Shown piece after piece: positions 61,901 to 63,232 of a DNA stretch of 64,000 bases; the stretch's first letter is position 1; each line of letters begins with the position of its first letter. Under the pieces are notes generated by a model. The model was not told where the DNA came from, did no database searches, and saw only the letters and a list, made by a program, of their open reading frames with translations. Position numbers and translations under genes: made by a program. The DNA is from Bispira polyomma (Eukaryota): the NCBI GenBank assembly GCA_965649765.1, contig OZ287749.1:92256001-92320000 (forward strand), written 5' to 3'.

Positions 61901-62329
61901 ATTTCCTCCACCAGTGAACTGCCAGCTGTGATAAAACTAGACTTGAGACAACCAATGCTATGTTGGGCGACTGTACATTTTCAGGGTACATGGTTAGTAA
62001 ATGGAATGTAATCTTCAAAGAAATCCCCTCTTACCATTACAAACTCCATCTCAATAATTACAGTGTGTTCCCATCCAGGAAGTGGTTGTATATGTACAAC
62101 ACATCTGTGTATTATACTGTATTTAAGCACATTCAGTATATCCCCTCTTACCATTACAGAACTCCATCTCAATCAGCAGTGTGTCTCCATCCAGAAAGTG
62201 GTTGTAATATGACACGATGTTTGCGTGATTCAGCATAGACAGGATGTCAATCTCATTTTGAGCGTCCTTCCTCTCCTTCTCACTCAGTTTACCCAGCATC
62301 ACTTCCTTCCACACAACCAGGGAGTTGTC
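25530..62329 (-). CDS. NEK9: NIMA-related kinase 9 (kinase + RCC1 repeats + coiled coil), multi-exon, 5'-partial in window
   Basis: Spliced exons give [10 protein letters not shown]...[23 protein letters not shown]...GTLLYMSPE...[11 protein letters not shown]...EVYFWGGGK...GQLGHGD...[12 protein letters not shown]...[10 protein letters not shown]...[11 protein letters not shown]...[11 protein letters not shown]...[13 protein letters not shown]. All are colinear with vertebrate NEK9 as I recall it. All introns are GT-AG and the phases chain without a break to TAA at 25530. Confidence 0.95.
27400..27973 (-). mobile_element. interspersed element with about 135-bp internal tandem repeat (HINE-like)
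   Basis: Three to four copies of CAAACTTAAAAGTGCCTA...TTATTGGTC.TAGAGGTTTG...GAAACCAA...AGGAAATCA; terminal CATCGGAGAACC.ATG hairpin. Confidence 0.55.
30033..30257. mobile_element. MITE with about 45-bp imperfect TIRs
   Basis: TAGAGT...CACTGTATCTGAAATTAGCCACC versus GGTGGCGAGTTTCAGATACAGTG...ACTCTA; no clear TSD. Confidence 0.6.
31644..31718 (-). CDS. NEK9: NEK9 exon E23 (coiled coil)
   Basis: tttcag|TTA CAA...GGC AAG|gtcagt; [25 protein letters not shown]; phase 0-0. Confidence 0.8.
32213..32975 (-). repeat. 59-bp tandem array (13 copies) of E22 3' end plus donor
   Basis: Unit on minus strand TATGTCCTTAGTAACAGTAAGAGTGTGATGAAACTAGAGAAAACCAACAGTAAG|GTGAG. Confidence 0.95.
32976..33164 (-). 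CDS. NEK9: NEK9 exon E22 (coiled coil)
   Basis: cacag|GAC ACA TTC...GCT AAG|gtgtgt; ...[46 protein letters not shown] with heptad pattern. Confidence 0.85.
33843..33877 (-). CDS. NEK9: possible 35-nt NEK9 exon E21b
   Basis: tttgtag|TC GCC AGT GCC ATG TCC ATC TGC CAG CAG TCA ACG|gtataa; phase 1-0 fits the 34585 donor and E22; weak donor, no homology support. Confidence 0.4.
34585..34669 (-). CDS. NEK9: NEK9 exon E21 (donor at 34589 or 34585)
   Basis: tgcag|[54 protein letters not shown]; two adjacent GT donors. Confidence 0.82.
35265..35351 (-). CDS. NEK9: NEK9 exon E20
   Basis: tgtag|GAA CTA...AAA AAG|gtgcgt; [29 protein letters not shown]; 87 nt, phase 0-0. Confidence 0.82.
35636..35787 (-). 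CDS. NEK9: NEK9 exon E19
   Basis: ttcag|TG TAC AAT...CAG GCA|gttagt; [10 protein letters not shown]...[11 protein letters not shown]; phase 1-0. Confidence 0.8.
36826..36876 (-). CDS. NEK9: NEK9 exon E18
   Basis: tacag|AG AAA GTC...AGA G|gtaagc; [17 protein letters not shown], matching vertebrate EKVLNSKTIRSNSSG. Confidence 0.88.
37040..37213 (-). CDS. NEK9: NEK9 exon E17 (RCC1)
   Basis: tacag|AT AAC TTG...GCA G|gtcagg; [16 protein letters not shown]...[26 protein letters not shown]. Confidence 0.92.
38058..38219 (-). CDS. NEK9: NEK9 exon E16 (RCC1)
   Basis: cgcag|CT GGA GGT...GCA G|gtaaaa; [25 protein letters not shown]...[13 protein letters not shown]. Confidence 0.93.
38387..38541 (-). 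repeat. 79-bp tandem duplication of E15 3' end plus donor
   Basis: 38387-38462 versus 38466-38541, near-identical. Confidence 0.93.
38486..38594 (-). CDS. NEK9: NEK9 exon E15 (RCC1)
   Basis: ttcag|ATT TCC...GAC T|gtaagt; [36 protein letters not shown]. Confidence 0.91.
38698..39170 (-). repeat. 69-bp x5 plus 40-bp x3 array of E14 donor
   Basis: Donor-containing ACCTG core recurs at about 38701, 38767, 38836, 38905, 38974, 39042, 39082, 39122. Confidence 0.9.
39171..39332 (-). CDS. NEK9: NEK9 exon E14 (RCC1)
   Basis: ttcag|GTT CAG...GAA CAG|gtgggt; [42 protein letters not shown]...KRKEQ. Confidence 0.92.
39338..39530. repeat. about 33-bp tandem array abutting E14 acceptor
   Basis: Unit GTTCAAGGTCACTTA.TCAATATAGACAGAATTT, about 6 copies. 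Confidence 0.8.
39789..39911 (-). CDS. NEK9: NEK9 exon E13 (RCC1)
   Basis: tctag|GTT TCC...CAA AAG|gtaaat; [41 protein letters not shown]. Confidence 0.93.
39912..40195 (-). repeat. about 92-bp tandem copies of E13 acceptor plus exon start
   Basis: Copies at about 39958-40040 and 40048-40130, partial at 40168-40190. Confidence 0.92.
40415..40539 (-). CDS. NEK9: NEK9 exon E12 (RCC1)
   Basis: ttcag|AC TCT GGG...GAT CAG|gtaaat; [42 protein letters not shown]. Confidence 0.93.
41346..41493 (-). CDS. NEK9: NEK9 exon E11 (RCC1)
   Basis: tccag|GGT CCT...ACA G|gtgagt; [39 protein letters not shown]. Confidence 0.93.
41876..42013 (-). CDS. NEK9: NEK9 exon E10 (RCC1)
   Basis: tacag|GTC TAC TTC TGG...TGG GCG|gtgagt; [13 protein letters not shown]...[15 protein letters not shown]. 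Confidence 0.93.
42438..43025 (-). repeat. array of E9 donor copies (about 17 units of 24-35 bp, two of them long)
   Basis: Core AA(C/T)CACT(G/C)ACCTCACTTG; long copies at 42678-42736 and 42898-42958. Confidence 0.92.
43026..43146 (-). CDS. NEK9: NEK9 exon E9 (linker)
   Basis: cccag|T GAG TTT...AGT GAG|gtgagt; [40 protein letters not shown]. Confidence 0.88.
43940..44440 (-). mobile_element. degraded 3' end of L2/CR1-group LINE
   Basis: Minus strand reads [38 protein letters not shown] (with a frameshift), the typical L2-group ORF2 end; (TTAGA)n tail at 43940-43959. Confidence 0.7.
46078..46340 (+). mobile_element. tRNA-derived SINE (relative at 26595-26780)
   Basis: A box TGGCCTAGTGG and B box GGTTTGATCCC; shared body CTATCTCCA.TG.CAG..TAAAG..CCTTG...CATCCTCAAG. 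Confidence 0.6.
49114..49361. mobile_element. MITE family copy (others 45002-45232, 45251-45430, 47612-47851, partial 40825-41000)
   Basis: GGGCTGGTATTCTC...GAGAATACCGACCC ends; shared core CTCTATTAAAATGAATGGTCACAAGTATAGGTTATTTC. Confidence 0.75.
50410..50474 (-). CDS. NEK9: NEK9 exon E8 (kinase end)
   Basis: tacag|GAT CCC...GCC AA|gtgagt; [21 protein letters not shown]. Confidence 0.9.
50928..51032 (-). CDS. NEK9: NEK9 exon E7
   Basis: ttcag|AAT GCC...AAC AAG|gtgggt; [35 protein letters not shown]. Confidence 0.9.
51123..51257. mobile_element. MITE family copy (others 25250-25400, 52004-52143, partial 49400-49500)
   Basis: GGGCCATATTTACAAAC...TTTGTGAATACCAGCCC ends with repeated CAGCCAATCA core. 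Confidence 0.7.
52170..52251 (-). CDS. NEK9: NEK9 exon E6
   Basis: tccag|G TAT AAC...GCT ACG|gtcagt; [27 protein letters not shown]. Confidence 0.93.
52380..52555. repeat. about 30-bp tandem repeat
   Basis: AAGGT(C/T)AAGGTCAAA.TTGGG.C units, about 6 copies, directly beside the LINE 3' end. Confidence 0.75.
52587..56009 (-). mobile_element. 5'-truncated Tx1/L1-clade LINE retrotransposon
   Basis: 877-aa RT ORF; 3' AATAAA plus poly(A) (T-run 52583-52598); target-site duplication AAGAACAATTTT at 52575-52586 and 56010-56021. Confidence 0.93.
53329..55962 (-). pseudogene. LINE ORF2 reverse transcriptase (endonuclease missing, premature stop)
   Basis: Motifs [46 protein letters not shown]...[10 protein letters not shown]. 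The frame continues past TAG 53329 into [16 protein letters not shown], so this stop is a lesion. Confidence 0.88.
56451..56742. mobile_element. piggyBac-like MITE (relative at 41007-41297)
   Basis: ACCCTTTCGACCCC ... GGGGTCCAAAGGG|TTAA ends; about 150 bp of internal sequence shared with 41150-41295. Confidence 0.55.
58728..58902. mobile_element. pogo-type MITE (relative at 5584-5753)
   Basis: TA|CAGTTGAACCTCTTTAAGTCGAA...CTTCAAGGGGTTTGACTG|TA. Confidence 0.7.
59087..59136 (-). CDS. NEK9: NEK9 exon E5 (activation segment end)
   Basis: ttcag|TAT GTG GGG ACC...GAT CC|gtgagt; [17 protein letters not shown]. Confidence 0.92.
59602..59707 (-). CDS. NEK9: NEK9 exon E4 (catalytic loop, DFG)
   Basis: tccag|A GAC ATC AAG...CAG ACG|gtaaga; [35 protein letters not shown]. 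Confidence 0.94.
60139..60262 (-). CDS. NEK9: NEK9 exon E3
   Basis: cacag|AT GGC...CAC AG|gtgagg; [42 protein letters not shown]; phase 1-2. Confidence 0.92.
61570..61682. mobile_element. short palindromic MITE, probably PIF/Harbinger type (relative at 58910-59027)
   Basis: CAGGGCCCGTATT...AATACGGGCCCTG, whole element folds back; CWG flanks. Confidence 0.75.
62152..62329 (-). CDS. NEK9: NEK9 exon E2 (kinase subdomains II-V)
   Basis: tatag|GAC AAC TCC CTG...TTC TGT AAT G|gtaaga; [59 protein letters not shown]; 178 nt, phase 0-1. Confidence 0.93.
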
Positions 62330-63232
62330 CTATACAGAATATACAAACAGAGGCTACAGATTTGTCCTACACAGAGGCTTAAAACAAGTGTCTGACAGAA
62401 TTAAACCACTCAGTTTACCGAGCATGACCTCCTTCCAGACAACCAGGGAATTGTCCTATACAGAAACAGAGGCTTAAACAAGTGTCTGACAGAATTAAAC
62501 CACTCAGTTTACCGAGCATGACCTCCTTCCATACAGCCAGGGAATTGTCCTATACAGAAACAGAGACTTGAAACAAGTGTTTAACAGAATTTAACCACTC
62601 AGCTTATATGAACTCCTTCCATACAACCAGGGCATTGTCCTACACAGAAACAGAATACACTAAAAAGTAGGCTTAAAACAAGTGTCTCAGAGACTTAAAT
62701 CACTTAAGACAACCAGCGAGGTATGCTTGAAATAGTATCACTTAAAATACTTTTACTTCCTTTTAAATGTCAAGGGAGTTGTATCACTTAAAATACTTTT
62801 ACTTCCTTTCAGATGTCAAGGGAGTTGTCCTGTAGACAAAAGGGAAATACAGAGAAAAAACAAGTGAGTTTACTCAACATGACCTTCTTCCAGGCGACCA
62901 TCGAGTTCTCCTACATAGAGTAACAGAGCGAGAGACAGAAGCACAGGCTTCAAATACAATTAAATGAGAATGAAAGCAGTTTAACCAGCATCTTCAAATT
63001 CCATAGCACCTTAGAGTTGTCTCATACAGACACGGACAAAATCCGGACAAAGAGACACTAAAAGACAGGCTTGAAATGCACCAAAAACAAGAATTAAGTC
63101 ATTCAGTGAGTTGTTCAACACAGTCAGACACAGGCTTTAAATACAATGAAATGCGGATAAAAATGAGCATTAAATCACTCAGTTTACCCAGCATCATATT
63201 CTTGAAGACTACAAGTGAGTTGTCCTACAAGG
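62330..63232 (-). repeat. about 94-bp array of E2 acceptor plus exon start (about 8-9 copies)
   Basis: Core CACTCAGTTTACC.AGCAT.AC.TCCTTCCA.ACAACCAGGG..TTGTCCTA at 62406, 62500, 62595 and degenerate to 63230. Confidence 0.92.

Follow-up and report, generated by a model that had tools for sequence, protein, structure and literature searches.

Mirage minisatellites have been described in lancelets, in Adh3, the globins BflGb6 and BflGb9, troponin C and PGBD5 (Ebner et al. 2010, PMC3087553; PMC3902484). A related case is known from human F7, where the 37-bp variable number tandem repeat (VNTR) of intron 7 begins with a repeat that crosses the exon-intron boundary and is followed by identical pseudo-sites that are reported as normally silent though functional (PMC1557585). 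Introns have also been proposed to arise when an AG|GT site is duplicated in tandem (Hellsten et al. 2011, PMC3265369; model in the legend to Fig. 7 of PMC3087553). In the main text of PMC3087553 the word "synonymous" occurs 0 times, and no paper with codon-position counts in mirages was found in the literature searched, which was incomplete. Here we describe an array of this kind in a 64,000-nucleotide (nt) stretch of the 1.04-Gb genome of the animal Bispira polyomma (assembly GCA_965649765.1, contig OZ287749.1, positions 92,256,001 to 92,320,000), hereafter the window. The array lies in intron 1 of a predicted minus-strand NEK9 gene and consists of eight tandem copies of the acceptor junction of exon 2.

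The NEK9 array is a mirage, a repeat type already known; it is ordinary in kind and mainly explained. Its unit spans the 62330/62329 boundary, AG/GT is present in many but not all units, and turnover of the inner copies is accompanied by diverged outer ones. Stops or frameshifts follow the copy acceptors, and in arrays across the genome differences from the exon that are shared among copies are biased towards silent sites, while private differences are near neutral. We consider it probable that the eight repeats are untranslated and that their silent bias arises because the working exon tolerates none but silent changes, whereas its copies decay randomly. Each exon-versus-copy comparison would then join one constrained and one free lineage, with silent-site divergence about doubled. 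The parts of the array are as follows, with copies numbered outwards from the exon and differences from exon 2 given as silent/replacement.

62152..62329, minus strand: NEK9 exon 2, the functional exon; 178 nt; kinase N-lobe, from the beta3 Lys to the hinge; Pfam Pkinase 1.4e-8
62330..62406, minus strand: intron tail proper; array spacer, with a local insertion of 31 nt that contains a tiny acceptor remnant (AG 62368-62367)
62407..62474, minus strand: copy c1; 49 exon bases, starting at 62455, behind an intact acceptor; 5/0; acceptor score 8.1 against 8.2 for the real site
62501..62594, minus strand: copy c2 with spacer; exon part from 62549; 5/1 (V5A); recent duplicate of c1 with a 94-nt period, 97% identical
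62596..62690, minus strand: copy c3; exon part from 62639; 5/3; 5-nt deletion; stop
62735..62854, minus strand: copies c4/c5; decayed 46-nt tandem pair near 62783/62829; c5 acceptor at 62829, 5/12
62863..62932, minus strand: copy c6; exon part from 62910; 7/6
62974..63030, minus strand: copy c7; exon part from 63021; 4/11; no AG left at the acceptor
63175..63239, minus strand: copy c8, the outermost; exon part from 63224; 4/5; invariant W and E altered
62023..62094, minus strand: donor-side echo of exon 2; last 58 exon bases plus donor; frameshifting indels; 3 silent and 2 replacement differences with 3 gaps; its donor scores 8.9, equal to the real one

Each copy joins the acceptor and tail of intron 1 to about 49 exon bases, and Tandem Repeats Finder reports a period of 94 with 3.1 units. 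Copy c1 differs from exon 2 at codons 2 (AAC/AAT), 6 (GTG/GTC), 9 (GAA/GAG), 10 (GTG/GTC) and 12 (CTG/CTC), with all 16 residues unchanged. The first-pass annotation, made from the sequence, had already given c1 as purely silent in its divergence and c2 as carrying a single replacement, with the distal copies more decayed; its sequence, coordinates and counts for c1 were right, and the values for c2, c6, c7 and c8 listed above agree with its description. To its list we add c3, the c4/c5 pair, the acceptor remnant near 62366 and the donor echo at 62094-62023. The acceptor AG is kept in c1, c2, c3, c5, c6 and c8. The copies do not count as independent: each of the 6 best parsimony trees places c1 to c3 together, and these three have four of the five silent states in common; c2 is a mosaic at codon 6, and the distal copies are 60-70% identical. 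Ahead of exon 2, the spacer agrees with that of c1/c2 at all 50 sites aligned, an identity that dates copy-to-copy duplication and not the split between exon and copies.

The array copies exist as DNA. Among the matches listed, contigs from 3 sequencing runs (at most 2 samples of 1 study, possibly the source of the assembly) matched 61894-62411 and 62502-64000 without a single differing letter, and their only break fell across the c1/c2 repeat; such contigs drop variants. A DNA search of the same genome for a second donor copy returned only the locus itself and c8, in a search that skips common words and is hence weak. An inverted copy of the spacer lies between c7 and c8 (window 63107-63140 against 62379-62412, 76% over 34 nt).

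For a pooled test, the genome was searched with eleven Pfam families; the Pfam match set the reading frame, and a trained matrix supplied the splice sites. We used 472 of the 709 non-Pkinase matches, namely those in retrieved DNA, and excluded intronless and obvious multi-copy ones; the 130 Pkinase matches, with intronless top loci, were not used, and the top UCH loci were excluded as multi-copy intronless open reading frames (ORFs). The 292 places of set A were analysed before the 180 of set B. A junction-spanning copy was present within 1.5 kb of 104 of the 819 junctions scored, and removal of two whole-exon copies in an SNF2 gene left 102 arrays with 374 copies. A swapped-intron control gave 0 of 240, so the repeats exceed chance.

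In the 40 arrays with at least three copies, differences found in at least 75% of the copies numbered 37 silent to 15 replacement (ratio of nonsynonymous to synonymous differences per site, pN/pS, 0.12), against 72 to 156 for private differences in the same arrays, where the fourfold/zerofold ratio was 1.27 (confidence interval, CI, 0.89-1.66). The contrast has a Fisher p of 2e-7 overall and in set A runs 28:8 against 52:121. Since shared differences are mostly silent and private ones are not, the silent bias lies on the exon lineage and the copies decay nearly neutrally. Of the origins that the first-pass annotation had suggested for the copies, an earlier version of the exon is thus supported. 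The singletons of the NEK9 array number 3 silent to 12 replacement. Frame is ignored in other respects as well: 115 of 129 exon-derived indels are not multiples of 3, 98 of the 374 copies are frameshifted and 47 contain stops, and the distance from junction to copy, modulo 3, is distributed 28/43/30, so that spacing is indifferent to frame. Splice dinucleotides mostly persist, with AG/GT intact in 103 of 119 acceptor copies and 214 of 237 donor copies. As a separate observation, the donor GT was altered at 22 of 487 copy sites, against 231 of 2290 zerofold G/T sites; this is probably ascertainment, as copies must align across the junction to be found, although it could instead be retention of decoy donors.

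For the nearest copies of the 102 arrays, differences at codon positions 1/2/3 were 126/99/217, a third versus first plus second position ratio of 217:225, or 0.96 (CI 0.80-1.17), with a silent fraction of 0.43. Divergence was 0.249 at fourfold sites (123/493), 0.147 at twofold sites, 0.102 at zerofold sites (216/2119) and 0.163 in the intron. This is the outcome, a ratio near 1:1 for neutral copies, that the first-pass annotation had itself set as refuting its reading, though strict neutrality predicts about 0.79 and not 1. A paralog exon was matched by 5 of 16 silent against 1 of 25 replacement copy states (p 0.026, duplicate rows removed by hand), a result in the direction of our main reading but weak, with paralogs that are saturated or near-identical, and sister-copy pairs in set A gave 1.72 (1.07-2.57), an indecisive value between the singleton 0.69 and that for exon against copy. 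Intron divergence was tried as an age clock and rejected, the spacer turning over with the array (0/50 differences beside 5/48 in the exon part).

The 5:0 split of c1 is the most extreme case of a nearest copy, a post hoc pick from the tail of the distribution such as is expected among about 100 arrays. Taken alone, it has p 0.015 on the pooled fraction, and simulating the same 16 codons gives 0.016 (60/3722). At least 4 differences were present in 54 of the 102 arrays, for which 0.63 all-silent cases were expected and 0 seen; the silent fraction showed no overdispersion across arrays (chi2 102, df 94, p 0.27), and the NEK9 copy tied for top among 71 arrays ranked by silent minus replacement differences. 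Junction copies also occur at NEK9 exons 3, 9, 13, 14 and 15. The nearest copies of the other five NEK9 arrays, at 1:1, 2:2, 5:3, 1:5 and 0:0 silent to replacement, have no such bias.

Several results weigh against random decay of the copies as a full account. Set B alone gave 9:7 shared against 20:35 private differences, which is not significant (p 0.25); private pN/pS was 0.64 (0.52-0.80), below 1, without correction for transition bias; and exon boundaries in the pooled set are matrix predictions. In strict-neutral simulations driven by the private-change spectrum, none of 200 runs attained the observed fourfold/zerofold ratio of 2.45 (1.91-3.13; simulated mean 1.77, maximum 2.39), and only 2 of 200 reached the position ratio of 0.96 (simulated value 0.79). 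This excess is present in set A (2.87). In addition, the c1 states AAT and CTC are found in neither the exon nor the distal copies; to explain them, either the stem of the copies must have changed silently, or the exon must have reverted, or a different allele must have been involved. The fourfold excess is absent in set B (1.86, CI 1.19-2.88), however, and hence unreplicated, and it would be removed if copies mutated 1.27 times faster at fourfold sites, which the private changes allow. CpG hypermutation was rejected as its source: CpG-prone contexts were no more diverged (0.224 against 0.280), though existing CpGs were (10/18).

One alternative is that the copies enter the mRNA by splicing, whether as alternative acceptors or as micro-exons, and are translated under purifying selection; translation had also been raised in the first-pass annotation. 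The state of c1 invites it: all 16 residues and the acceptor are intact, the acceptor lies an in-frame 126 nt from the real one, and a weak internal donor of 4.3 bits could yield a 27-nt in-frame cassette. Copy acceptors are not weak either, scoring 8.1, 9.1, 9.5 and 12.0 against 8.2 for the real site. All 7 copy starts tested (c4 excluded) nevertheless run into a stop before the end of the exon. Use of the c1 acceptor adds 126 nt in frame and ends at codon 34, use of c2 shifts the frame and ends at codon 45, and use of c5 ends at codon 7. No donor-like site inside a copy scores above 4.3, compared with 8.9 for the real donor, and the proposed cassette would double the strand with the catalytic Lys. 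Replacements in c2, c5, c7 and c8 strike V5, W7 or E9, which are invariant in 115 of 115 motif-bearing homologs (of 120). Translated duplicated exons are expected to be whole, with an acceptor and a donor of their own and an intact frame, and to have a ratio of nonsynonymous to synonymous substitution (dN/dS) well below 1 on the copy lineage; here the copies span 49 of 178 nt, and the private fourfold/zerofold ratio given above is near neutral. Simulated selection on the copies (omega 0.3) overshoots, at 4.5 and 1.69 against the observed 2.45 and 0.96. With indels and spacing indifferent to frame as well, we leave translation only the slimmest chance.

The remaining alternatives address the silent excess. 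Under allelic capture, the founder of c1 to c3 was derived from one allele of the exon and was later brought next to another by recombination within the 80-130 nt spacer, so that standing silent polymorphism adds to divergence. A simulated silent offset of 0.05 on the exon lineage gives 2.15 (1.76-2.63), a position ratio of 0.91 and a silent fraction of 0.44, near the observed 2.45, 0.96 and 0.43, and c1 has zero replacements and silent states missing from the distal copies. A divergent allele, which the first-pass annotation had named as a source, may have played a part and would match the modest excess at fourfold sites. Five changes in the roughly 11 silent sites of c1, however, far exceed ordinary allelic divergence; the excess is not larger in the arrays with the least intron divergence (1.83 against 2.76 in the most diverged bin), although intron divergence is a poor clock; and it is unreplicated in set B. 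We regard allelic capture as unlikely. That the excess is real and caused by selection, with about one junction in eight next to intact decoy splice sites and true exons shifting their silent sites to stay distinct from the decoy copies, we hold to be very doubtful. In a specific form of this idea, the silent sites of the exon are pushed away from intact decoys by gain of enhancers or loss of cryptic donors, which raises the silent rate of the exon. The residual excess itself fits, the scores of 242 of 369 copy sites lie no more than 1 bit from that of the real site, and the exon states at NEK9 codons 9-10 cut a donor-like site from 4.3 to 2.0; fourfold sites of set A, on the other hand, have no purine or directional bias, and the excess is modest, unreplicated and gone under the faster fourfold mutation noted above, which makes splicing selection highly improbable. 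Ongoing, selection-filtered gene conversion between copies and exon, also proposed in the first-pass annotation, would keep copies coding-like, and the copies clearly exchange or duplicate among themselves, as the identical spacers and the codon 6 mosaic of c2 attest. Simulated two-way exchange with a selection filter, though, lowers the fourfold/zerofold ratio to 1.34-1.47 (maximum 1.72 in 50 runs), below both the no-exchange and the observed values; the effect (1.3-1.5) is in the wrong direction, and conversion would also wipe out the five silent differences. We can give it hardly any credence.

If the copies are untranslated and decay at random, the history of the array may be sketched. The first copy would have been born by tandem duplication across the junction, through slippage or unequal crossing-over, and the copies would then have been duplicated from one another, as the 97% identity of c1 and c2 and their identical spacers suggest. 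By such copy-to-copy duplication, c1 to c3 would share one older split from the exon, which was presumably left out of homogenisation among copies. An older allele as source may contribute slightly. By analogy with the lancelet mirages and human F7, most splicing would go to the acceptor nearest the exon, and the mRNA made on the rare occasions when a copy acceptor is used would contain a stop and probably be degraded.

The host gene is NEK9 to judge by its predicted domain order, a NIMA-type kinase domain followed by RCC1 repeats. Exon 2 begins at 62329 on the minus strand in phase 0 and aligns without gaps to its homologs. Nek9 proteins are its best named matches (85% in Capitella, 83% in Ridgeia) and carry PF00069 and PF00415; the best matches being from annelids, the host is probably one too. 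Structures of NEK2/1/7 are matched as well. The Lys in the repeated exon segment aligns with chain position 37 of NEK2, which we take to be the ATP-binding lysine. Kinase and then RCC1 exons were mapped in order by tblastn, as for NEK9, and 18 exons with AG/GT ends give a stop-free model of 705 residues, with the 3' end of the gene outside the model. The exons flanking exon 2 are placed as follows.

60139..60262, minus strand: NEK9 exon 3, the next downstream
window-equivalent 67009-66917, minus strand: NEK9 exon 1, beyond the window edge

Other features of the gene and window were recorded. Further splice-junction arrays in NEK9 lie at window 32211-33010, 38388-39174, 39860-40125, 42422-43075 and 59953-60165, those at exons 9, 13, 14 and 15 being included in the counts above; among them is a 59-nt unit repeated 13.7 times with donor-like sites, near a 3' exon outside the gene model. 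Intron 5 holds, on the strand of the gene, a 942-residue reverse transcriptase ORF of the long interspersed nuclear element (LINE) type (window 53332-56157, minus strand; RVT_1 1e-34, zf-RVT). High-copy palindromic elements resembling miniature inverted-repeat transposable elements (MITEs), with very high contig depth, occur in the region of introns 2-4 (window 58907-59016, 59166-59413 and 61567-61682). An intronless 471-residue ORF at window 20503-21915 (plus strand) has a weak FCH/F-BAR match (6.7e-4, below the cut-off).

Elsewhere in the genome, the SNF2-family gene at C1:81985569-81986183 has a whole exon duplicated in tandem; over 120 nt the two versions differ by 22 silent and 6 replacement changes, and they look like a true mutually exclusive exon pair, unlike the mirages. 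About 27 UCH/USP deubiquitinase ORFs with open frames of 580-790 residues and near-equal scores were found, one of them a Pfam-confirmed UCH (examples at C6:34316, C11:124045, C7:142428, C13:183272, C3:185071, C15:182953, C8:257363, C1:108247017 and C2:108073252). Many lie less than 300 kb from chromosome ends or in tandem units of 41-44 kb (tandem at C5:33.17-33.30 Mb and C6:48.60-48.73 Mb), and a large element, repeated or subtelomeric, probably carries them as cargo. Many kinase ORFs without introns, 411-419 residues long and also near-equal in score, are dispersed through the genome, with a tandem cluster at C4:97.6-99.1 Mb; these are possibly element-borne. A myosin region with a donor mirage exon is present in three copies, 99.6-100% identical, on different chromosomes (C13:27302335, C11:4180277 and C8:1226545), a recent segmental duplication.

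As it stands, the NEK9 array carries little weight, being a further mirage in which silent bias follows from the comparison of a constrained exon with free copies. Two further results are of modest value. With mirages at 12% of the sampled junctions of conserved genes, such arrays are common in this genome and can mislead both gene prediction and read mapping. The contrast of shared with private differences separates change on the exon lineage from change on the copy lineage without an outgroup. Should the residual excess reflect allelic capture or splice-driven selection, the arrays would be a system for studying how true splice sites beat identical decoys; should exons indeed shift silent sites away from decoys, mirage arrays would both drive and archive silent-site evolution and would permit a fixed-versus-private test of selection within a single genome.

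Of the systems outlined at the beginning, the human F7 VNTR is alike in its boundary-spanning repeat followed by pseudo-sites; it is on the donor side, mammalian and homogeneous, whereas the NEK9 array flanks mainly the acceptor and is both old and heterogeneous. The intron-gain model finds a parallel in c1 and c2, which hold AG|GT, a proto-splice site, at codons 9-10 inside the duplicated exon sequence. The true NEK9 exon differs in having AA|GT, so that there is no matching acceptor and no new intron. The likeness to the lancelet mirages is closest: that of BflGb6 likewise repeats the 3' end of an intron with the 5' part of exon 2 in tandem (PMC3087553), and lancelet mirages in general keep AG/GT in many but not all units, occur on both acceptor and donor sides, and turn over in their inner copies while the outer ones are diverged. 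Unit sizes agree as well, with 46-126 nt for the inner NEK9 copies and 10-160 bp in lancelets. Length polymorphism and normal splicing were demonstrated for the lancelet arrays, while the NEK9 array is known from DNA. What is different here is a host that is not a lancelet, a measured frequency (102 of 819 junctions) and a count of codon positions.

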